Under the pieces are notes generated by a model, which was not told where the DNA came from, did not search any database, and saw only the letters and a list, made by a program, of their open reading frames with translations. The translations under genes and the position numbers were made by a program. A stretch of 64,000 bases of DNA from Terriglobia bacterium (GTDB lineage Bacteria > Acidobacteriota > Terriglobia > 20CM-2-55-15), in NCBI GenBank assembly GCA_965198225.1, contig CBDAOY010000009.1, positions 1,216,001 through 1,280,000 of the forward strand, written 5' to 3'. The first letter of the stretch is position 1. Each line of letters opens with the position of its first letter. Shown here in pieces: positions 1,458 to 14,121 of the stretch.

Positions 1458-1856
1458 ATGGAACAGGAAGAACGCATCTTTAGCCGCGACGAAGCCAACC
1501 AGATGTTGCCGCGACTCCGGCCGCTGCTCGCTGAGCTGCGGGGGGAATGGCTCCGGATCCAGGAGCTGAACCCGGAGATCCAGAAGCTGCGCGAGAAGAT
1601 CTCGATGGATGCCTACAGCCCCCACGGCGTCGAGTATGTCGAGCTGGTTTCTCGCCTGACCCTCCTCATGGAGCAGATCCGCGACCTGGGCGTTTTCGTC
1701 AAGGACGTCGACAAGGGGTTGTGCGATTTTCCCTACCGGATGAAGGATCGCATCGTCTACCTATGCTGGCAGGTGGGAGAGGACTCCATCGAGTACTGGC
1801 ATGACATCGAAGCCGGGTTCGCCGGCCGCGAACCGCTGCGCGACGAGGATTGTTGA
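1458..1856 (+). CDS. DUF2203 family protein
   Basis: FSRDEAN.LP N-terminus and VKDVDKGLCDFP...VYLCWQVGE..I.YWH....GFAGR pattern; abuts the trxB stop (TAAATG). Confidence 0.85.
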   Translation: MEQEERIFSRDEANQMLPRLRPLLAELRGEWLRIQELNPEIQKLREKISMDAYSPHGVEYVELVSRLTLLMEQIRDLGVFVKDVDKGLCDFPYRMKDRIVYLCWQVGEDSIEYWHDIEAGFAGREPLRDEDC

Positions 1857-1899
1857 GACTGAACCCCGATTTCGTTCTGTTGAACGCCGATTGCTTTCC

Positions 1900-2271
1900 A
1901 TGAGTTCAACGCCAGACAAGATCTGCATTTCCGGTATCGATTGCGTCGCCGCCATCGGAGTGACCCCGGAGGAGCGCACCATGAAACAGCGCCTTTCCGT
2001 CGATGTCGAGTTGATGACCGACATCCGGAAGGCGGCCGGGAGCGACCGGCTCAAGGACGCGTTGGACTACTCAAAGATCGTGGCGGACGTCGTGGCGATC
2101 GCGGCAAGCCGGGACTTTCATCTGATCGAAACAGTGGCCGAAGAAATCGCGGCCCGGGTGCTGTCCGATTTCGATACAGACAGCGTCCGCGTCGTCGTAC
2201 GGAAAACGACTCCGGTCATGGCCAGCCGCGTCAATTTTGTGTCAGTCGAAATCGAACGTAGCAAGGTCTGA
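1900..2271 (+). CDS. folB: Dihydroneopterin aldolase
   Basis: DKI.I.GI.....IGV..EER...Q...VDV, D.L....DYS, LIETVAE, V.VRK, VSVEIER; start set at ATG 1900. Confidence 0.92.
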   Translation: MSSTPDKICISGIDCVAAIGVTPEERTMKQRLSVDVELMTDIRKAAGSDRLKDALDYSKIVADVVAIAASRDFHLIETVAEEIAARVLSDFDTDSVRVVVRKTTPVMASRVNFVSVEIERSKV

Positions 2272-2322
2272 CACAAAAGAGGCTAAATAATTCGGAAGAA
2301 AACACTTCTCAGAATATTTCTG

Positions 2323-2352
2323 TTGAAGACTCTGAAAAATCTGCGCTATGCT
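2323..2352 (+). promoter_or_regulatory. Putative sigma70 promoter of the radical SAM gene
   Basis: TTGAAG-18 nt-TATGCT in an AT-rich patch, about 190 nt upstream of an AGGAGG-TTG start. Confidence 0.4.
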
Positions 2353-2547
2353 ACGGGCGCTTTATGACACTCTGGCAAAGTGTATCTGCCGGGGTTTTCT
2401 TGGGTTTAATTCTTTAGAGTTACTCCACAGCGCCCGCGAGGTTCAGCGGCCAGCGGCCGATCAGGCCGCGGCGCAGAGAGAACGCTCCTTTTCCACAAGA
2501 AGCAACACAGGCAACAGGAAAAGGCACAACTGTACTAGGAGGCACTT

Positions 2548-4689
2548 TTGGCTACCTTGAATCAGGCGACGGTTTCGAACGGAACCGACGGTCGCGAGCA
2601 GTTTAAGGTTCCGATCGGTAAGCGTGCGATGAAGTTTGTTGACGCCGCTGTGTGCTACAGCGCGGGCGTCGCCTTCGACACGATTCAATACTTCAACAAA
2701 TACAATCCGACCCCTGCTTTCACGCCAAAGTGGTCGGAGAAGCCACTCCAGAAGTCCTGGCAGAAGACTAAGCCGACGCTCGGCTGGCCCCGGGAGACCG
2801 ACTCGCTGTGTCCGAAGTGTGTCACCGAAGCTCGGGCCGCCATCATCAACGGCGAGCAGGATTGGACGACGCTGCTGCACGAGAAGGTCGGTGAGGTGAA
2901 AGCCGACATCATCGAGCGAGACGGCCAGGTGTGGATGGTCAAGGATTGTCCCCAGCACGGCAAGACCGAAGACCTCATGGCGATCGATGTCCGGTTCCTC
3001 GAGTGGATCGAGAAGAACTTCCCCGGACGCGACATCCCGGCCCACAACGACGAAACTCTGCACAACCACGGCAGCAGCACGGTCAAGCATGGGCGCGGCA
3101 GCGTGTTGACGGTCGATCTGACGAACCGCTGCAACATGATGTGTGATCCGTGCTTCATGGATGCCAATCAGGTGGGGTACGTCCACGAACTGACCTGGGA
3201 CGACATCAAAGAGATCATGGACAACGCGATGCAGATCAAGCCGCGGCGCCAGATGTCGATCCAGTTCTCCGGCGGCGAGCCCACGATGTCTCCCTTCTTC
3301 CTGGATGCGGTGGCGTACGCCAGGAAACTCGGCTTTGCCAGCACTCAGGCGGCGACGAATGGTATCGAGTTCGCCAAGAGTGGGGAGTTCGCCAAGAAAG
3401 CGTATAAAGCCGGTCTCCGTTACGCCTACCTGCAGTTCGACGGAATTGGCAACGACGCCAACAGCCATCGGCAAGTCGGAAACCTGTTCGATGTGAAACT
3501 GCGCGCGATCAATAACCTGCACGCCGCGGGCGTCGAGATCATACTCGTCGTCACGCTCGTTAACGGCGTCAACAACGATCAGGTGGGTTCGATCCTGCGG
3601 TTTGCGATGGACAACCCGAAGAAGATCGCGTTCATCGCGTTCCAGCCGGTTTCCTTCACGGGCCGCGACGAAGAAATCACGCCGGAACGACGCTTGCGGC
3701 AGCGCTACACGTTGTCGCATCTGGCCCACGATGTGAAGCAGCAGGTCGGCATCACCGAGCCGACTCGCGACTGGTTCCCCCTTTCTTTGATGGGCGCTTT
3801 CGCCGATTTTGCCGACCTCTCACATGGTCCGGGTCGGGAATGGGGTCAGGTCAGCTGCGGATGCCATCCCAACTGTGGCGTCGGCACTGCGCTGATGATC
3901 AACAAGGAAACCAAGGAAATGGTCCCGGTGCCGGAGTTCCTGAGCATCCCGGGTCTCGTTGACGACATGCGGAAAGTCACCGACGCGGGACGCACCAAGT
4001 GGGTCTCGAACGCCATGATGGGACTGGCGCTGCTGAAGAACTACAACCCGCACCGGGCGCCGAGCACGATGACCTTGGCGGACCTGTTCAAGAAGTTCGA
4101 CAAATCATTCGGCTTGACGGGCAAGAGCTACGGCAAGATTACCAGCGATCGGAGCTTGCAGGACACGCAGCAGCGGCGGGCCGACCCGTGGAACTTCCTC
4201 TTTGTTGCCGGGATGTGGTTCCAGGATCTGTTCAACTATGATTTCCGCCGGACCGAGATGTGCATCATTCCCTATGCGACACAGATGGGTGAGATTTCTT
4301 TCTGTGCCTACAACACGGGCATCGGCTGGCGGAACATTATCGAGAACATGTTCAAGACCCACACCGTTGCCGAGTGGCACCGCGAGAACGGCAAACACGG
4401 CGTCTACGCGGCCGGCAAGGAAGTCGAACTGGAGACGACCGAGCACAGCCTGGTGATCCGGGCCGAGGATGCCGACCGCGTCCGCAACCGCGGTGAACTT
4501 CCGCTGACGGCATCCGACGAAGGGAAAATGGCTCGGAAGCGCCAGCGCGAAGCGGAGAAAGCGCAGGAGATCTACGAAGAGATGGTCCTCGGCAAGAAGA
4601 AGAGCAAGGTGGACCTGATCAAACTCGAAGTGTTTTCCCGACGCGAGGATGAGAAGGAGAAGGAAATGTCGGCGGCGGCCGGCGATTGA
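2548..4689 (+). CDS. tes: Radical SAM protein, tetraether lipid synthase (Tes/GDGT-MAS, MJ0619 family) homolog
   Basis: N-terminal rubredoxin-like TDSLCPKC...KDCPQHG; CX3CX2C in TNRCNMMCDPC; FSGGEPT; YLQFDG; CGCHPNCG and MCIIPY...ISFCAYN auxiliary-cluster motifs; GMWFQD.FNYD; AGGAGG RBS before TTG. Confidence 0.82.
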   Translation: MATLNQATVSNGTDGREQFKVPIGKRAMKFVDAAVCYSAGVAFDTIQYFNKYNPTPAFTPKWSEKPLQKSWQKTKPTLGWPRETDSLCPKCVTEARAAIINGEQDWTTLLHEKVGEVKADIIERDGQVWMVKDCPQHGKTEDLMAIDVRFLEWIEKNFPGRDIPAHNDETLHNHGSSTVKHGRGSVLTVDLTNRCNMMCDPCFMDANQVGYVHELTWDDIKEIMDNAMQIKPRRQMSIQFSGGEPTMSPFFLDAVAYARKLGFASTQAATNGIEFAKSGEFAKKAYKAGLRYAYLQFDGIGNDANSHRQVGNLFDVKLRAINNLHAAGVEIILVVTLVNGVNNDQVGSILRFAMDNPKKIAFIAFQPVSFTGRDEEITPERRLRQRYTLSHLAHDVKQQVGITEPTRDWFPLSLMGAFADFADLSHGPGREWGQVSCGCHPNCGVGTALMINKETKEMVPVPEFLSIPGLVDDMRKVTDAGRTKWVSNAMMGLALLKNYNPHRAPSTMTLADLFKKFDKSFGLTGKSYGKITSDRSLQDTQQRRADPWNFLFVAGMWFQDLFNYDFRRTEMCIIPYATQMGEISFCAYNTGIGWRNIIENMFKTHTVAEWHRENGKHGVYAAGKEVELETTEHSLVIRAEDADRVRNRGELPLTASDEGKMARKRQREAEKAQEIYEEMVLGKKKSKVDLIKLEVFSRREDEKEKEMSAAAGD

Positions 4690-4716
4690 GGCCCACGCGA
4701 TAGCTATTCCTTAACG

Positions 4717-4746
4717 AGGGCGGCCCACACGGGCCGCCCTTCTTTT
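4717..4746 (+). terminator. Rho-independent terminator after tes
   Basis: agggcggccc-acac-gggccgccct followed by tctttt. Confidence 0.85.
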
Positions 4747-4781
4747 GATTGAGGCACTAGTCGCGGGATTTTATTTTGCGT

Positions 4782-4976
4782 TGTCCGTAGGCCGTTGTGG
4801 TTTCGCTTTGCGAAGTTTGGCTGGTGACTGGCGAGGGAGAGTCGCACGGAGAAAAGAGACATGTGTCGCCAGTCACGAACCAATCCTCGCGCCGTAACAA
4901 CTCAACGGCCTACTGGCCTCGCCTCGCCGGTCACCCATGATTTGTCGTTGAGCGAAACCGCAACGGCCTACGGACA
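4782..4976. mobile_element. MITE-like element A (195 bp, 26-bp TIRs, TGT...ACA ends)
   Basis: tgtccgtaggccgttgtggtttcgct (4782-4807) pairs with agcgaaaccgcaacggcctacggaca (4951-4976), 1 mismatch; internal IR gtgactggcga/tcgccagtcac. Confidence 0.7.
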
Positions 4977-5042
4977 GTCAAAGCGGTCCATTGCGTCTTT
5001 GCGGTGAAAATATCTCTTCGCGGGGCGTGGTTCGTATGGCCC

Positions 5043-5552
5043 CTACAGGCCGAGGGTTTTCTTTCCCTCTTCGGAGATCCGTTGGGGGGTCCAGGGCGGG
5101 TCCCACACGATCTCGACCTTGGGAGTGGGGAAGCCGGCGGCTTCGAGCTTCGTCTGGACATCGCTGCTGATCGCTCCGCTGGAGGGGCAGCCCGGCGCGG
5201 TCAAAGACATCTTCACGTTGGTGGTGTCTTCTCGCGAGTCGACCTCGTAGATAAGGCCCAGGTCGACGATGTTCAAGGGGATCTCCGGGTCGTAGCATTC
5301 CTTGAGCACTTCCATGATGAGTTCCTTGTCACTCAGGTGCGCAAGCCCCGGATCTCGTGACTGCTCTACCAGTTTCGCGAGCGACGGTTCTTCCTCGGAA
5401 GACACTCCCGAAGGCGGTATCGGTTGCTGGGCGAGGTCGACCTCCGGTTCTTCGGCGGCGAAAGACGCGGTCACACTCGCCTGTCTTCGGTTGGCGTAGA
5501 TCAGACCGATGACGATCACGAGCGGGACGATGATGAGCAGGTATGTGAGCAA
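5043..5552 (-). CDS. DUF59/SufT-like Fe-S cluster assembly factor with an N-terminal membrane anchor
   Basis: CYDPEIPLNIVDLGLIY, MSLTAPGCP, VWDPPWTP motifs; hydrophobic N-terminal helix. Confidence 0.88.
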   Translation of the reverse strand: MLTYLLIIVPLVIVIGLIYANRRQASVTASFAAEEPEVDLAQQPIPPSGVSSEEEPSLAKLVEQSRDPGLAHLSDKELIMEVLKECYDPEIPLNIVDLGLIYEVDSREDTTNVKMSLTAPGCPSSGAISSDVQTKLEAAGFPTPKVEIVWDPPWTPQRISEEGKKTLGL

Positions 5553-5791
5553 ATTCCCTCCGGACGTGTCCGACCCCTTCCTAAGGGAGGGATCTCAAGC
5601 CAACTGTTACGTATCGAACGACGTTTGTCAACTCGGCCAACCTCGTGATTCAAGTTGAAATTGCTACTTCATGGGTCCCGAACCACGCCCGAAACCCTCC
5701 CTCCTCTTGAGCCCATCGTTCCGGGAATTTTGCTATAATGCGCTGTTGGCCAGCAACAAGCGAGTAACCTTAAGAGGAGAGGTTAAGACAT

Positions 5792-6289
5792 ATGGCTTCC
5801 GTCCCCGTGAAAGCTCTGGACCAGCCCGCCTTAGAAATCGCATCAGGGCCATATAGAGTTGCCAGCACGACCATGAAGGTCCAAACCGAGGATCGGGTGG
5901 AACTGCACGACCTGACCCAGAAAGTCCAGGACTTAGTCCGTTCTTCGGGAGTGCGTGCCGGACAGGTGATCGTTGCGTCCATGCACACAACGAGCGCTAT
6001 ATTCATCAACGAATGGCAGGACGCGTTGCTGTTCGACATTCGAAACCACATCGAGAGCACCGTGAACCGGGAAGGCTACTACCGACACAACGACCCCGAA
6101 TGGTCCGACTGCGATCGGAACAACGCGGATTCCCACCTCAGGACACTCGCGCTCGGGACCCAGGTGACGCTGCCCGTCGCGGACGGGGACGTGGTTCTCG
6201 GAGAGTTTCAGAGTGTGATCATGGGAGAACTCGACGGACCCCGCGAGAGGATCATCCGACTCCAGGTCATGGGAATCGGGGACGGATAA
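5792..6289 (+). CDS. YjbQ/UPF0047 secondary thiamine-phosphate synthase family
   Basis: HTTSAIFINE, YRHND, NADSHLR, LGEFQSV..GELDGPRER; AGGAGAGG RBS. Confidence 0.9.
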   Translation: MASVPVKALDQPALEIASGPYRVASTTMKVQTEDRVELHDLTQKVQDLVRSSGVRAGQVIVASMHTTSAIFINEWQDALLFDIRNHIESTVNREGYYRHNDPEWSDCDRNNADSHLRTLALGTQVTLPVADGDVVLGEFQSVIMGELDGPRERIIRLQVMGIGDG

Positions 6290-6313
6290 AGGGGTCGAGG
6301 AGGAGAGGGCAAG

Positions 6314-6661
6314 ATGACAACTTCAGTGACGAAGACAATTTCGATGACCAGTCAGGCAGAGGAAAAGGTCAAGCAGATACTCGCCGAGCAATCGGAAACG
6401 TTCGCGGGTTTGCGGATCCAGGTCGTCGGTGGCGGGTGTTCCGGGTATCAGTACCGGATGGGCTTCGACAAGAGTTTCAACGAAGAGACAGACGAGATCT
6501 TTGATTTCGACGGATTCCAAGTAGGAGTCGACCGCTCGAGCCTGCTGCATATGGAAGGAGCAGAAGTCGATTATGTCGAAGGGCTCCACGGGGCCGGGTT
6601 CAAGTTCAACAATCCGAACGTGACGGGGACCTGCGGTTGCGGAGAGTCGTTCAGCACCTAG
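6314..6661 (+). CDS. A-type Fe-S carrier (IscA/ErpA, HesB family)
   Basis: GGGCSGYQY and F.NPN..GTCGCGESF. Confidence 0.95.
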   Translation: MTTSVTKTISMTSQAEEKVKQILAEQSETFAGLRIQVVGGGCSGYQYRMGFDKSFNEETDEIFDFDGFQVGVDRSSLLHMEGAEVDYVEGLHGAGFKFNNPNVTGTCGCGESFST

Positions 6662-6681
6662 GGCAAGTTGTTGGTACAACA

Positions 6682-6722
6682 GGGCTTCGCGTGAGAGAAC
6701 TTCCCCGCGAGGCCTTTTGTTT
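6682..6722 (+). terminator. Putative terminator after the IscA/ErpA gene
   Basis: ggcttcgcg...cgcgaggcc stem followed by ttttgttt. Confidence 0.55.
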
Positions 6723-6794
6723 CCTGCGCCGCGCGAAGACAAATTGACCCTTGTCTTCGCCGGGGAATCGAGCAATCATCGCTACTATCAAGAT

Positions 6795-8844
<2,050 letters not shown>

Positions 8845-10742: not shown

Positions 10743-12041
10743 CTAAGCCTCCCAGGTTTGGAGCGTGTGCTTGATGTCGGCCATGAACTGATCGGCGACC
10801 GCCCCGTCGATCACACGGTGGTCGAACGAAAGGGACAGGTACACCATCGGGCGTATCGCGATCGCGTCGTCGATGACGACCGGCCGCTTTTCGATGCCGC
10901 CCATACCCAGAATAGCAACCTGCGGCTGGTTGATGATCGGGGTTCCGAACAGGCCGCCGAAGTTGCCCGGGTTCGTGATCGTGAACGTCCCGCCCTGAAC
11001 CTCATCCGCCGAGAGTTTCTTCGTACGGGCTCTCTCGCCGAGATCGTTCAAGGCCCGCGCCAGTCCGAGCAGGTTCTTCTCGTCGGCGTTCTTGATGACC
11101 GGCACGATCAGTCCCCACTCCAGCGCGACGGCGATTCCGATATTGACGTCCTTCTTGTAGACGATCGAATCTCCGTCGATGGACGAGTTGACGATCGGGA
11201 ACTTCTGAATCGCCCGTACCGCGGCCTGGAGGAAGAACGGCGTTACGGTCAGCTTCGTTCCGGCACGCTCGAACTCGGCCTTCAGCCGGGCCCTGGCAGC
11301 CATGATCGCCGAACAGTCGATCTCGAACAGCGTCGCGACGTGCGCGGACGTGCGGCGGCTCATGACCATGTGTTCGGCGATGGATTTGCGCATCGCCGTC
11401 ATCGGCACCCGTTCGACCGGACCCTTGAACGTTGGGGCGGGAGTAGCCGGTGCGTGTGGGGCGGCAGCGGGTCGGGACGCCGCAGGCGCCGCCGCTGGGC
11501 TGCCCTGCTCGATGAAGCTCAGGATGTCGCGTTTCGTGATTCGTCCGCCGACGCCCGTTCCCTTGTCACGGAGAAGCGTGAGATCAATCCCGTTTTCTCG
11601 GGCGATCCGGCGCACCAATGGTGACGAACGGATGCCGCTTGCCCTGACCGCAGCGCCATCCCCAGCCGCCGCGGGCGCAGCAGCAACGTCCCCAGCCGCC
11701 GCGGCGACGGCCTCCACCGGCGGGGCCGGTTCTTCAACTGCCGGCACCCCTCCGTCACCGGATGTCTCGGCTTCCTGCTCGGGAGCCTCCACCACTGTGC
11801 CTGCTTCGGCGATCAAAGCCACCACGGTGTTGATCTCCACGGTCTGTCCTTCCTCGACGAGGATGTCCTTCAGGACACCGGCCGCGGGAGCGGGGATTTC
11901 CGAATCGACTTTGTCGGTCGAGATTTCGAAAAGGGGCTCGTCCCGCTCGATGGCTTCCCCTTTGTCCTTCAGCCACCGTGTGATGGTGCCTTCAAAAATG
12001 CTTTCGCCCATCTGGGGCATGATCACTTTGGTGTCGGGCAT
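10743..12041 (-). CDS. 2-oxoacid dehydrogenase E2 dihydrolipoamide acyltransferase
   Basis: Lipoyl domain EISTDKVDSEIP, E3-binding SSPLVRRIARE, catalytic DHRVIDG. Confidence 0.95.
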   Translation of the reverse strand: MPDTKVIMPQMGESIFEGTITRWLKDKGEAIERDEPLFEISTDKVDSEIPAPAAGVLKDILVEEGQTVEINTVVALIAEAGTVVEAPEQEAETSGDGGVPAVEEPAPPVEAVAAAAGDVAAAPAAAGDGAAVRASGIRSSPLVRRIARENGIDLTLLRDKGTGVGGRITKRDILSFIEQGSPAAAPAASRPAAAPHAPATPAPTFKGPVERVPMTAMRKSIAEHMVMSRRTSAHVATLFEIDCSAIMAARARLKAEFERAGTKLTVTPFFLQAAVRAIQKFPIVNSSIDGDSIVYKKDVNIGIAVALEWGLIVPVIKNADEKNLLGLARALNDLGERARTKKLSADEVQGGTFTITNPGNFGGLFGTPIINQPQVAILGMGGIEKRPVVIDDAIAIRPMVYLSLSFDHRVIDGAVADQFMADIKHTLQTWEA

Positions 12042-12063
12042 GGAATCGAAGTCCTCGATTCGG

Positions 12064-13038
12064 TCAAAAGGCGTTCAGATTTCTTGCCACGTCGATCACG
12101 TCGGACACCTTAGGGAGGAAGAATTCCTCCAGCGGCGGGCTGTAGGGGACCGGTGTGTCCGGCGCCGTGATCCGTCGTATCGGCCCGTCCAGGTATTCGA
12201 ACGCCTCTTCCGAGATCGTTGCCGCCAATTCGCCTGCGAAGCCCCCCGTGCGGGTGTCCTCGTGCAGGAGGATCACTTTATTGGTTTTCTTCACTGACTC
12301 CAGAACAGCGTCCTTGTCGTAGGGCAGCAGCGTTCTCATGTCGACGACTTCGAGATCGATGCCTTCCTTCTCGAGTTCTTTCGCCGCATCGAGGGCCAGA
12401 AACACCATCGCTCCGTAAGTGATCACGGAAATGTCGCTGCCGCTTCTGCGGACGGCCGCCTTACCGATCGGCACCGTGTAGTCTTCTACCGGCAGCTCTT
12501 CCTTGATGCGGCGGTAGAGGAACTTGTGCTCGAAATAGATGACGGGGTCGGGGTCCCGGATAGCCGCCTTGATCAGACCTTTTGCATCGTACGCCGTCGA
12601 CGGGCAGACCACCTTCAGGCCTGGCGTATGGACGTAGTACATCTCGGGATTCTGGGAGTGGAACGGGCCACCGTGGACGCCCCCGCCGCTCGGGCCACGC
12701 ACGACGATCGGGATACCGGCGCCCCAGCGGTACCGGCACTTGGCGGCGAAGTTCGTGATCTGATCGAAAGCGCAGGATATGAAATCCGCGAACTGCATTT
12801 CGGCAATCGGCCGCATTCCCATCATCGCCGCGCCGATCGCGGTCCCCACGATGGCGGATTCCGAGATCGGGGTGTCGATCACGCGCCCTTCCCCGAATTC
12901 CTCCAGCATTCCCGCCGTCACCTTGAAGGCGCCGCCGTAGATGCCGACGTCCTCACCCAGGATGAACACGCGATCATCGCTGGCCATCTCTTCCCAGATC
13001 CCCTGTTTGATCGCTTCGACGTAGGTTGTCAGTGCCAT
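12064..13038 (-). CDS. 2-oxoacid dehydrogenase E1 beta (branched-chain type likely)
   Basis: GEDVG..GG.F, DTPISE, EMQFADF, GGGVHGGPFHSQ. Confidence 0.93.
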   Translation of the reverse strand: MALTTYVEAIKQGIWEEMASDDRVFILGEDVGIYGGAFKVTAGMLEEFGEGRVIDTPISESAIVGTAIGAAMMGMRPIAEMQFADFISCAFDQITNFAAKCRYRWGAGIPIVVRGPSGGGVHGGPFHSQNPEMYYVHTPGLKVVCPSTAYDAKGLIKAAIRDPDPVIYFEHKFLYRRIKEELPVEDYTVPIGKAAVRRSGSDISVITYGAMVFLALDAAKELEKEGIDLEVVDMRTLLPYDKDAVLESVKKTNKVILLHEDTRTGGFAGELAATISEEAFEYLDGPIRRITAPDTPVPYSPPLEEFFLPKVSDVIDVARNLNAF

Positions 13039-13101
13039 AACACTCGATTCTCGTGTCGGTCCAGGTTGCGACTTCCGGGAAAGCCCGACGACGGGGGCCT
13101 C

Positions 13102-14121
13102 TCAGCCCTCGTAGTAGACGTCTGTGAGGCAGTCTTCAGGGTCGGGGAACGGATCGTTCTCGGCGATCGCGACGCCCTCGTCTACTTCAGCCACGACGCG
13201 CTTCGTGAGTTCATCGATTTCGGCGTCCGTGATGAGTCCCTGTTCAAGCAGGGAGGCCTGCAGTCGCTTGATCGGATCGCGCTTTTCCCAGAATTCGAAG
13301 AGTTCGGGCGGCACGTATCCCGCGTCGTCATGCGCCGAATGGCCGGTCATCCGGAAGGTCTTGCATTCGATCAGGCTGGGGCCGCCGCCGCTCCGTGCCT
13401 TCTCGATAGCTCTCGCAGCGACTTCCCACACTGCGGTGACGTCGTTGCCGTCCACGATCTCTCCCGACATGCCGTAGGCTTCGGCGCGATCGGCGATGTT
13501 TTCGACTGCCATCTGGCGTTCGAGTGGCGTGGAATAGGCATACTGGTTGTTGTTGCAGATGAATACAACCGGGCATTTCAGGACTGCCGCCATATTCATG
13601 CCTTCGTGCCAGTCGCCACGGCTGGTGGCGCCGTCCCCGAAATAACAAATCGAGACGTTCTTCTCGCCCCGCATCTTCATCTTCAGGCCGATTCCAGTCG
13701 CGACCGGGACGTTGTCCCCCAGCATACTGACGAAGGCGACCAGGTTGTACTTCAGCGACCCCATATGCATGTTGCCGTCCTTCCCGCGGGTCGGACCGGT
13801 CTTTCGGCCCATATATTGAGCCAGAATCTCCCGCGGCGGCATCCCCCGGATGAGGAACGCTCCCATGTCCCTGTGGGACACGCAGATGACGTCATCCGGC
13901 TCCGAAAGGATACAGGAGCCCACGGCGATCGCTTCCTGTCCTCGGCCGACGTAGACTCCGCCGACGATCTTCCCCTGGCGGTAGAGTTTCCGCTCGAGAC
14001 GGTCCTCGAGCTCCCGCGTCAGCTTCATGTAATAGAGAAGATCCCGGAGGGTCTGGGGATCGGGCAGCGGCGAGGGAGACGAAACCTGCTCTGTCGAGGC
14101 CTGAGATTTCATCGTTTTCAC
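13102..14121 (-). CDS. 2-oxoacid dehydrogenase E1 alpha
   Basis: TPP-binding GDGA...NN motif, GQEA, RMTGHSAHD. Confidence 0.93.
   Translation of the reverse strand: MKTMKSQASTEQVSSPSPLPDPQTLRDLLYYMKLTRELEDRLERKLYRQGKIVGGVYVGRGQEAIAVGSCILSEPDDVICVSHRDMGAFLIRGMPPREILAQYMGRKTGPTRGKDGNMHMGSLKYNLVAFVSMLGDNVPVATGIGLKMKMRGEKNVSICYFGDGATSRGDWHEGMNMAAVLKCPVVFICNNNQYAYSTPLERQMAVENIADRAEAYGMSGEIVDGNDVTAVWEVAARAIEKARSGGGPSLIECKTFRMTGHSAHDDAGYVPPELFEFWEKRDPIKRLQASLLEQGLITDAEIDELTKRVVAEVDEGVAIAENDPFPDPEDCLTDVYYEG

Follow-up and report, generated by a model that had tools for sequence, protein, structure and literature searches.

Archaeal GDGT-MAS/Tes (MJ0619; structures 7TOL and 7TOM) contains an N-terminal [4Fe-4S] cluster ligated by C73, C77, C80 and a His as well as a C-terminal auxiliary cluster with Met439 as labile Met, next to Tyr459 as conserved active-site residue; moreover, ester-linked phosphatidic acid was found bound to the enzyme (accessible sections of PMC9433317). 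Homologues in bacteria were proposed for synthesis of branched GDGTs (brGDGTs) by Zeng et al. 2022, who report, in the accessible part of their paper, 40–42 % identity to archaeal Tes for Koribacter versatilis and Solibacter usitatus, a single homologue (32 % identity, E 4e-61) for the brGDGT producer Edaphobacter aggregans, and a tree containing an Edaphobacter gene of long-form length (PMC8941075). The first-pass annotation of the present locus, which named acidobacterial Tes homologues as brGDGT candidates, thus agrees with a published idea: the candidate dates from 2022, long forms are present in published trees, and the locus is one more copy of a known candidate gene. Bacterial Tes homologues are without experimental confirmation (PMC11868695), and the literature searched yielded no functional test of an acidobacterial one. 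Chen et al. 2025 (doi 10.1016/j.gca.2025.05.019), as cited in the accessible part of PMC13023045, credit "a Tes homolog" in Koribacter, of whichever paralogue type, with tetraesters, which counts against the reading favoured below.

Tail-to-tail coupling of fatty-acyl chains was shown for Mss, a radical SAM enzyme of Thermotoga and Thermoanaerobacter, which forms diabolic or iso-diabolic acid, i.e., the reaction proposed below for the long form, but is set apart as a different family by its published description; in the sections available, its authors found no homologue in Acidobacteria (PMC13159169). Table S21 of the same study gives no Tes homologue for Granulicella and Edaphobacter strains making iso-diabolic acid lipids. 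Lipid surveys, as summarized in the accessible part of PMC13274423, place iso-diabolic acid in subdivisions 1, 3, 4 and 6 and do not list subdivision 23. In the following, bacterial proteins above the Tes cut-off are referred to as A type, the long form including the protein studied here as B type, a form of ~660–670 aa as C type and TrsS-like proteins as D type.

Gene, flanking signals and gene context

A single ORF covers 2548-4689 on the + strand of the window, i.e., the whole stretch of 64,000 nucleotides analyzed. Its reading yields a protein of 713 aa, and the ORF is confirmed as a genuine gene, present according to genome-wide search in one copy in the 6.4-Mb genome (97 % complete). The TTG start codon (2548-2550) is preceded at a distance of 5 nt by the Shine-Dalgarno sequence AGGAGG (2537-2542, + strand), both being kept in 9/9 own-family loci. 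A block composed of TTGAAG, an 18-nt spacer and TATGCT (2323..2352, + strand), likewise kept in all nine of these loci, may represent the promoter, as far as can be deduced from its sequence; it matches merely 8 of 12 consensus positions, and a consensus sigma-70 scan returned no site. The ~190-nt leader contains a conserved palindrome or weak hairpin (2368..2396, + strand; RNAalifold consensus stem of weak energy, -5.3 kcal/mol, n=9 sequences), and no Rfam family matched within 1800-5800 at E up to 1. A sigma-54 promoter in the leader was rejected due to a GG-to-GC spacing of 12 instead of 10. An intrinsic-terminator-like hairpin with T-run is located 3' of the stop codon (4716..4751, + strand); 9 of its 11 stem pairs are G-C, and hairpin and T-run together span 4716-4741. 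The region 2494-4695 is covered without mismatch by short contigs of four metatranscriptome libraries (one study), which stop at 4693-4695 and thus weakly hint at transcription of the gene; such contigs are absent from 1-900 and most of 4801-5700, an absence that says nothing about silence of these regions.

A gene for FolB (1801-2271) is located directly upstream, separated by a 276-bp spacer. The folB-side synteny is kept in 8/8 own-family loci, MJ0619 was formerly annotated as hydroxymethylpterin dimethyltransferase, and relatives are still named "7,8-dihydro-6-hydroxymethylpterin dimethyltransferase" in some sources, all of which could point to a pterin- or cofactor-related radical SAM enzyme. 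Such a role is very improbable, however, since folB adjacency is missing in 12/12 loci of other families, the spacer carries its own conserved promoter-like block, and the pterin assignment of MJ0619 was deemed incorrect from its structure (accessible sections of PMC9433317). In the loci of other families, the surrounding genes encode QueG, MoaA, transporters and transposases. The gene is a solitary one, without a lipid operon that would be conserved outside the own family, and since synteny is limited to the own family, gene context lends no support to the coupling of lipid tails. Genes for 2-oxoacid dehydrogenases at 10743-14121, considered as a source of branched-chain primers, score as PDH or 2-oxoglutarate-type and were discarded.

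Protein architecture in comparison with archaeal GDGT-MAS/Tes

Sequence and model identify the protein as a clear homologue of archaeal GDGT-MAS/Tes. Residues 116-613 match the 7TOL sequence (E 4.5e-62), and the AF2 model (pLDDT 88.7) matches the 7TOL fold over 547 columns (TM 0.89, target-normalised; rmsd 3.1 A), with 7TOL and 7TOM giving target-normalised TM values of 0.87-0.89. In the model, this match extends over the whole chain including the C-terminal pocket domain, the runner-up matches SkfB and MoaA being confined to the core (TM <=0.53). The architecture in common with MJ0619/Tes, claimed in the first-pass annotation, is thus borne out, at 27 % identity in the structural alignment. 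Tes enzymes are further characterized by two hydrophobic pockets for the lipid tails and by Csp3-Csp3 coupling of two such tails. Membership in the Tes equivalog family NF045702 is defined by a whole-protein score of at least 450 bits, which among 14 control genomes is passed only in M. jannaschii, S. acidocaldarius and M. acetivorans. The present protein scores 315.5 bits and its orthologues across 40 relatives ~293-340 bits; by sequence score, it is not a Tes equivalog. The second-best NCBIfam match is TrsS (NF045646; 212.6 bits, below its cut-off of 490), with which the protein has the rubredoxin-like site and the core in common.

Both Pfam gathering thresholds for a radical SAM protein with HMPTM-type zinc ribbon are passed (Radical_SAM PF04055, 61.8 vs 29.5 bits, E 1.1e-16, residues 191-353; Zn_ribbon_HMPTM PF23545, 52.5 vs 27 bits, E 3.5e-14). 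All four motifs read initially from the sequence are present (numbering from a B-only alignment): the rubredoxin-like site C88-x2-C91...C134-x2-H137, the radical SAM motif C195-x3-C199-x2-C202, and the auxiliary motifs C437-G-C439-H-P-N-C443 and F585-C586-A-Y-N589; the whole protein contains 12 Cys. The N-terminal extension, estimated at ~80 aa beforehand, comprises ~79 residues ahead of the MJ0619-equivalent start, given that C88 is the counterpart of MJ0619 Cys9; the zinc ribbon begins at residue 81. Residues 1-26 are poorly conserved (mean majority share 8.7 %), as compared to 73.5 % for residues 27-84 in the B-only alignment (2626..2799, + strand). This part (model pLDDT 84-96) holds a helix (23-50) and the stretch FTPKWS..KPL.KS.QKTKP.LG.PR.TDS, the latter being common to B and C types and missing from A and D types.

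In the rubredoxin-like zinc-ribbon domain (2800..2982, + strand; PF23545), with the same CX2C...CX2H as MJ0619, Cys33 and His36 of the latter correspond to C134 and H137. The domain differs from MJ0619 by a 22-aa insert between its halves, found in 11/11 B and 4/4 C sequences. A further difference follows downstream: in place of the N-terminal auxiliary [4Fe-4S] motif there is a Cys-free segment (residues 160-186; 3025..3105, + strand), so that C73, C77 and C80 of MJ0619 have no Cys counterpart in the long form. The segment aligned to the N-cluster of MJ0619 reads LHNHGSSTVKHGRGS; its conservation amounts to 86 %, with H166, D168, H172 and H174 invariant.

The radical SAM core (3106..3747, + strand; PF04055) retains, besides C195, C199 and C202, the SAM-binding motifs GGEPT and YLQFDG, with G243, Y294 and D298 aligning with MJ0619 Gly145, Tyr195 and Asp199. 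The subsequent auxiliary-cluster and lipid-pocket domain (3748..4347, + strand) contains the three conserved Cys of the predicted C-terminal cluster (C443, C572 and C586), M556 aligning with Met439 and Y576 aligning with Tyr459. C443, C572, C586 and M556 are conserved to at least 90 % over 63 sequences of all types. Two additional Cys beside C443 (C437 and C439) distinguish the long form from MJ0619. Ligand loss, which would speak against a Tes-like enzyme, therefore applies to the N-terminal cluster and not to the C-terminal one, and the active-site check ends likewise: SAM motifs, cluster Cys, Met and Tyr are kept, the N-cluster Cys lost.

The long form exceeds MJ0619 at its C-terminus by ~100 residues. 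These comprise an extension common to B and C types (residues 601-654; 4348..4509, + strand; model pLDDT 89-94 up to ~residue 640) and a charged tail modelled as helices 655-680 and 690-710 (residues 655-713 plus stop codon; 4510..4689, + strand). The latter had been predicted correctly, as the 7TOL alignment stops at 613 and residues 600-713 hold 23 K+R and 25 D+E among 114 positions; for the tail, 18 K+R and 19 D+E in 74 residues were counted (conservation 42 %). As in MJ0619, no transmembrane segment is present. From its sequence, the long form is predicted to be a Tes-like radical SAM enzyme that is soluble or peripheral; it would contain one rubredoxin-type iron and two [4Fe-4S] clusters, namely that of the radical SAM motif and a C-terminal auxiliary one.

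Paralogue types and their distribution

Phylogenetic analysis (IQ-TREE, 38 rows without a named archaeal sequence, rooted on TrsS-like rows) unites the long form with the C type and four representatives below the Tes cut-off in a separate clade (SH-aLRT 100, stem 1.11), while the bacterial A type groups with the representatives above the Tes cut-off. The first-pass designation as Tes homolog thus holds for homology and fails for equivalog status, the protein standing outside the clade of Tes-scoring proteins.

The A type (e.g., in genomes G024 and G032) belongs to the same superfamily as the long form and occurs in Acidobacteriota as well, but clearly differs from it: the present protein and that of G024 share 35 % identity over 560 columns, and A-type proteins reach 589-594 bits against the Tes model (7TOL match E 5.8e-136), keep the N-cluster motif CX3CX2C..H, have neither of the terminal extensions of the long form, and are encoded next to genes for a radical SAM/SPASM protein and a GT9 glycosyltransferase. 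From published identities and E-values, the A type is probably the Koribacter/Solibacter kind.

The C type and a ~625-aa form common in MAGs labelled Thermoanaerobaculia are more closely related to the long form (51 % and 57 % identity, respectively), sharing with it the absence of Cys from the N-cluster region, the extension at the N-terminus, the motif xCxCHPNC and the beginning of the extension at the C-terminus. Both form one clade with it (SH-aLRT 99-100), but end without the charged helical tail. As a second copy, the C type is found in 4/40 relatives and in many Blastocatellia-class genomes. TrsS-like D-type genes of relatives encode ~500 aa with N-cluster Cys kept and Met absent, and sit with genes for a MerA-like oxidoreductase and a DVU1556-type methyltransferase; the genome studied here has none. 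Across the types, the N-cluster motif is kept in A and D, and its Cys are absent from 11/11 B and 4/4 C sequences. However, one protein (P0246) reaches 584 bits on the Tes model without any N-cluster Cys; the feature is thus not universal in the Tes family. The protein atlas contained nothing beyond "Acidobacteriota radical SAM".

Matches to the long form were obtained in 40/40 relatives of the class, 38 of which have open frames of 687-798 aa, the two others being G029 (601 aa) and G019 (68 % complete; two pieces). Among the 61 genomes of the class (Blastocatellia) to which a Pyrinomonadaceae-labelled MAG belongs, 60 have it as well. In Blastocatellia and in the class studied here (label of the named nearest relatives: Terriglobia), the long form is hence near-universal; it is missing from 136 of the 251 genomes of the phylum. 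True Tes above the cut-off was found in only 2/40 relatives, both of which have the long form as well, and the long form is the sole Tes-family member in the present genome. Joint occurrence of A, B and C types in some genomes (e.g., G024 and G032) argues against simple redundancy.

Sub-threshold Tes score and long stem make a changed substrate or chemistry possible: the long form might catalyze some other radical reaction of a hydrophobic substrate, with canonical Tes or another enzyme making iso-diabolic acid. Conceivable examples are another cross-link, another coupling position, or a lipid other than a glycerophospholipid. The placement in a separate clade, the replacement of one metal centre by an invariant His/Asp-rich loop, the conserved additional segments at both termini, the co-existence with true Tes and C type in G024 and G032 and the occurrence in Thermoanaerobaculia-labelled MAGs agree with a different reaction. 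We nevertheless regard it as rather unlikely, though deserving attention: every tested residue of the reaction centre is retained, the equivalents of Met439 and Tyr459 among them, the fold spans all of 7TOL with its C-terminal pocket domain, the example of P0246 indicates that loss of the N-cluster Cys alone leaves the family unchanged, and most producers of iso-diabolic acid have no other known candidate, be it from the Tes family or Mss.

Proposed reaction and markers of ether-bond formation

The function that we favour, and that in our judgement has an even chance of being correct, is tail-to-tail coupling of iso-acyl chains to ester-bound iso-diabolic acid lipids rather than brGDGTs. Homology together with the whole 7TOL fold, and the kept reaction-centre residues, suggest the coupling of tails. 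By analogy with GDGT-MAS, 5'-deoxyadenosyl radicals would abstract H from the methyl group at the end of a lipid tail positioned in a hydrophobic tunnel, the tail radical would be held on the C-terminal cluster, and a second tail radical would lead to the C-C bond. The host is a bacterium with fatty-acyl rather than isoprenoid lipids; the likeliest substrates would be iso-C15 acyl chains of ordinary ester-linked glycerophospholipids, and the product would be membrane-spanning lipids of iso-diabolic acid (13,16-dimethyl octacosanedioic acid), not tetraethers. An ester-bound substrate is suggested by the phosphatidic acid bound to GDGT-MAS (accessible sections of PMC9433317).

The assignment to iso-diabolic acid draws on the spread of the long form (40/40; 60/61) alongside the reported occurrence of this lipid in subdivisions 1, 3, 4 and 6. 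The long form is favoured as the coupling enzyme, since it is the only Tes-family member here and true Tes is rare among relatives; and with Mss not found in Acidobacteria and no Tes homologue given for the Granulicella and Edaphobacter producers, it would be the remaining candidate. The presence of the ~625-aa form in Thermoanaerobaculia MAGs counts against iso-diabolic acid, as subdivision 23 is not among the listed producers.

Alternatively, ether-linked tails could be coupled, with the organism making branched GDGT tetraethers. In favour of this, there is the above proposal of Zeng et al., the E-value of the Edaphobacter aggregans homologue (4e-61), which resembles that of the long form (4.5e-62 to 7TOL) and not that of true bacterial Tes (5.8e-136), and a possible indifference of the enzyme to ester vs ether tails (accessible part of PMC13274423). 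The gene content of the genome, however, renders tetraether formation improbable. The marker of Ger/PlsA-type ester reductases is BcrAD_BadFG combined with DUF2229, with or without HGD-D. Neither PF09989 (DUF2229; Thermotoga control positive) nor PF06050 (HGD-D) had a match in the 97 %-complete genome, and a large BcrAD_BadFG protein is absent, PF01869 matching only a 287-aa and, weakly, a 517-aa ORF. Fatty acyl reductase-like proteins (NAD_binding_4) are present only as stand-alone forms of 403 and 582 aa, neither of which looks like ElbD, a multidomain reductase. Besides tail coupling and ether formation, the proposed bacterial brGDGT pathway includes ring formation by a Grs-like synthase. 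The radical SAM/SPASM neighbour of true Tes, conceivably a Grs homologue, gave no orthologue in the genome, its best match there being the Tes-like gene itself (1.6e-13). Ger-like ORFs were found in 8/40 relatives, but in 0/4 own-genus and 1/24 own-family genomes. Going by these marker searches, the genome looks to be without genes for converting such lipids to tetraethers, and the step from Tes homolog to candidate brGDGT producer was the weak one in the first-pass annotation. The failure of the searches to detect any marker of ether formation speaks for the favoured reading, and the genome appears fitted out for membrane-spanning lipids with ester bonds, not for tetraethers.

Beyond the single genome, one may speculate, with somewhat less confidence than in the coupling reaction itself, that the long-form clade, not canonical Tes, is the general iso-diabolic acid synthase of Acidobacteriota, performing fatty-acyl Tes chemistry without the N-terminal [4Fe-4S]. 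The His/Asp loop (H166, D168, H172 and H174) and the N-terminal helix might then handle electron entry or membrane docking. If this holds true, the additional presence of Ger or true Tes in a lineage would decide on tetraether production.

Branched GDGTs serve widely as temperature and pH proxies, and their producers and enzymes are unsettled. Screens for brGDGT potential are based on BLAST against archaeal Tes, which, depending on the threshold, merges the two paralogues or drops the long form. Identity of the coupling paralogue would sharpen gene-based source attribution, as would recognition of ether formation as a separate, patchier trait, reflected in Ger-like genes in only 8 of the 40 relatives.

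Gene, fold and reaction centre

The long-form gene (window 2548-4689, + strand) comprises 713 codons in one open reading frame and is present as a single copy in the 6.4-Mb, 97 % complete genome. Its TTG start codon, with AGGAGG 5 nt before it, is retained in 9/9 own-family loci, as are two elements upstream: (i) a promoter-like block (TTGAAG-18 nt-TATGCT, 2323-2352), and (ii) downstream of this block, a palindrome (GGCA..TGCC within CTCTGGC..GCCGGGG, near 2368-2396) that may serve as a regulator site or fold into a hairpin in the leader. The palindrome does not qualify as a canonical sigma-54 promoter. Since the 276-bp spacer to folB carries both conserved elements, and an 11-pair hairpin with T-run (4716-4741) lies directly beyond the gene's end, the gene looks monocistronic with a leader of ~190 nt. 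Short metatranscriptome contigs from four libraries of one study cover 2494-4695 without mismatch, flanking stretches being bare, which gives a weak hint of transcription. Contigs of the same RNA libraries also run across the UPF0047 gene and onward as far as the start of ThiC (5700-6900), and a depth spike is located at 8401-8700 within the 3' part of thiC.

The encoded protein (P0001) contains 12 Cys and no transmembrane segments. Pfam assigns an HMPTM-type zinc ribbon (residues 81-145) and a Radical_SAM domain (191-353), and every motif listed in the first-pass annotation was found (C88/C91...C134/H137; C195/C199/C202; C437-G-C439-H-P-N-C443; F585-C586-A-Y-N). The closest solved structure is GDGT-MAS (Tes, MJ0619) of Methanocaldococcus jannaschii (7TOL; E 4.5e-62, residues 116-613), the structural runners-up SkfB and MoaA covering the radical SAM core alone. 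An AlphaFold2 model built on a 63-row alignment (mean pLDDT 88.7, pTM 0.87) matches 7TOL with a target-normalised TM of 0.89 (rmsd 3.1 Å, 547 columns), so that E value and predicted fold together bear out the proposed homology to Tes/MJ0619.

Combining the residue roles given in the available text of Lloyd et al. 2022 (PMC9433317) with the P0001-7TOL alignment, C134 and H137 correspond to Cys33 and His36 of MJ0619, G243, Y294 and D298 to the SAM-contact residues Gly145, Tyr195 and Asp199, M556 to the labile cluster ligand Met439, and Y576 to Tyr459. Conservation of C443, C572, C586 and M556 is at least 90 % across all subfamilies of the 63-row alignment. The reaction centre of Tes is retained in P0001.

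Departure from the Tes equivalog

P0001 scores 315.5 bits on the curated NCBIfam Tes model (cut-off 450) and is not a Tes equivalog. In MJ0619 the N-terminal auxiliary cluster is bound by C73, C77, C80 and a His, whereas the corresponding segment of P0001 (LHNHGSSTVKHGRGS) has zero Cys. In a comparison alignment from relatives (11 long-form proteins, 4 ~660-670-aa C-type paralogues, 2 true Tes passing the cut-off, 2 TrsS-like proteins), the underlying motif CX3CX2C..H is kept in true Tes and TrsS-like proteins and missing from all long-form and C-type proteins. The latter two share a 22-aa rubredoxin-domain insert, ~60 additional conserved residues at the N-terminus and an extension at the C-terminus, while the charged helical tail is confined to the long form. 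The Cys-free segment is 86 % conserved, and H166, D168, H172 and H174 (window 3043-3069), at the position of the N-terminal [4Fe-4S] cluster in MJ0619, are invariant in 20/20 long-form sequences; these residues could form a replacement mononuclear metal site. Loss of the N-cluster alone is not disqualifying, since the representative protein P0246 also lacks these Cys and scores 584 bits on the Tes model.

In a maximum-likelihood tree (38 rows without named archaeal sequences, rooted on TrsS-like rows), long-form and C-type proteins fall into a single clade with four sub-threshold representatives (SH-aLRT 100; stem length 1.11), and the bacterial true Tes join the representatives above the cut-off. 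Identity with Tes itself is thus contradicted by both the curated model and the tree.

P0001 is another member of an already published Tes-like family. Bacterial Tes homologues were proposed for brGDGT synthesis by Zeng et al. 2022 (PMC8941075), the available parts of which report homologues of Koribacter and Solibacter (40-42 % identity; E 1e-149 and 1e-139) and of E. aggregans (32 %, E 4e-61), and in the supplementary tree labels one Edaphobacter gene of 2100 nt, i.e., of long-form length. Sahonero-Canavesi et al. 2022 (PMC13159169) did not find the bacterial membrane-spanning lipid synthase Mss in Acidobacteria, and their Table S21, under strict criteria, gives no Tes homologue for iso-diabolic acid-making Granulicella and Edaphobacter strains. 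According to excerpts of PMC13023045 (2026), citing Chen et al. 2025, a Tes homologue is linked to iso-diabolic tetraesters in Koribacter, and Tes plus Ger to brGDGTs in S. usitatus. Bacterial Tes homologues are still termed experimentally unconfirmed in the text available from PMC11868695 (2025), and searches of the literature turned up no functional test of an acidobacterial one.

Distribution and gene neighbourhoods

A search of 40 relatives, which span 26 genera and 11 families of the class, with the Tes model yielded a long-form match in 40/40, with open frames of 687-798 aa in 38; the exceptions are G029 (601 aa) and the 68 % complete G019 (two pieces). Only two genomes, G024 and G032, hold a protein above the Tes cut-off (594 and 589 bits; E 5.8e-136 against 7TOL, 35 % identity to P0001), and both also hold the long form and one C-type copy.

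Among 251 genomes of the phylum, 148 matched P0001 at E 1e-40 or better and 103 had no match; 115 of the 148 matched strongly (E no higher than 1e-140, with an identity of 50 % or more wherever one was listed), including three unpublished genomes (G084, G182, G061), and 33 only weakly (E 1e-55 to 1e-102). In the class that contains a Pyrinomonadaceae-labelled MAG, the same search found the long form in 60/61 genomes. Two own-family MAGs are labelled Solibacteraceae and Ca. Sulfopaludibacter, and going by these labels the window may belong to Bryobacterales (subdivision 3). Among the best 80 of 590 named-record loci, most bear the labels Terriglobia, Acidiferrales, Solibacteraceae or Pyrinomonadaceae/Blastocatellia; 14 of these 80 carry another or no phylum label, their proteins being ~70 % identical to P0001. 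The foreign labels comprise Gemmatimonadota, Verrucomicrobiota, Actinomycetota, Bacillota, Saccharimonadota, Vulcanimicrobiota and Eisenbacteria (oddly labelled loci include L074, L076, L077, L087, L089, L092, L098, L100, L119, L123 and L124), and mislabelled MAGs seem more likely than transfer. A tail-less ~625-aa form (57 % identical to P0001) occurs in Thermoanaerobaculia-labelled MAGs.

In the window, the long-form gene is preceded by genes for thioredoxin reductase, DUF2203 and FolB, and followed by a convergent gene for a SufT-like Fe-S cluster assembly protein (5043-5552, - strand; kept in 6/8 own-family loci), UPF0047 and ThiC. The upstream trio is retained in 8/8 own-family and 0/12 other-family loci, the neighbours in the latter varying (QueG, MoaA, transporters, transposases). 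These 20 loci reveal no conserved lipid operon, and the context is therefore uninformative on function. True Tes of G024 and G032 (L043 5761-10388; L044 2791-7632) is preceded by FadJ and acyl-CoA dehydrogenase genes and followed by genes for an AhbD/NirJ-like radical SAM/SPASM protein (519-546 aa), a GT9 heptosyltransferase-like protein and ThiC, which looks like a lipid-related cluster, whereas the long-form gene is without one. In the own family, 2.2 kb separate the long-form gene from ThiC on its downstream side (window 6922-8844), and in another family ThiC closely follows the true-Tes cluster (L043 10605-12476); the resemblance may go back to a common ancestral location or be coincidental. 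Some relatives possess a TrsS-like radical SAM protein of ~500 aa (L040 2502-6261; L041 2504-6243; 323/313 bits with the TrsS model and 327/326 with the Tes model), whose gene apparently shares an operon with those of a MerA-like FAD oxidoreductase and a DVU1556-family (ArsM-like) methyltransferase; the window's own genome has no such gene.

Ether-lipid markers and predicted product

The marker of ester-to-ether reduction, Ger/PlsA, combines BcrAD_BadFG with DUF2229, with or without HGD-D. A domain search found neither DUF2229 nor HGD-D in the 97 % complete genome (a Thermotoga control was positive for DUF2229), and BcrAD_BadFG in just two ORFs, one of 287 aa and, weakly, one of 517 aa. Ger-like ORFs (1073-1258 aa) occur in 8/40 relatives, in 0/4 of the own genus and 1/24 of the own family. 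For the radical SAM/SPASM protein encoded beside true Tes, no orthologue was found in the own genome, whose fatty acyl reductase-like proteins are of stand-alone kinds only. Two of these are encoded on other contigs (L127 1144-3606/L128 895-2643), one of 403 aa adjoining an MGDG-synthase-like glycosyltransferase and one of 582 aa with a Sterile domain; a fatty-alcohol or lipid-modifying role is possible for both. While the observations and the Tes homology of the first-pass annotation stand, its claim of brGDGT formation proved the weakest part, ether-forming gene markers not being found, and the organism is very unlikely to be a brGDGT producer.

The long form may instead couple iso-acyl tails to ester-bound iso-diabolic acid lipids, a reading to which we give an even chance. 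It is favoured by (i) the retained reaction centre and fold, (ii) the near-universal presence of the long form in lineages with iso-diabolic acid-making cultured members (subdivisions 1, 3 and 4, as stated in the available part of the survey PMC13274423), and (iii) its being the sole Tes-family member here, together with the missing ether-forming markers. It is weakened by the divergence of the clade and the missing metal centre, the uninformative gene context, the co-existence of Tes paralogues in some genomes and the occurrence of the form in Thermoanaerobaculia-labelled MAGs. One small class of the phylum includes a family with the long form in 6/6 genomes and another with a Tes-family match in 0/9 (f31/f13), and these families represent a natural contrast for comparative lipidomics.
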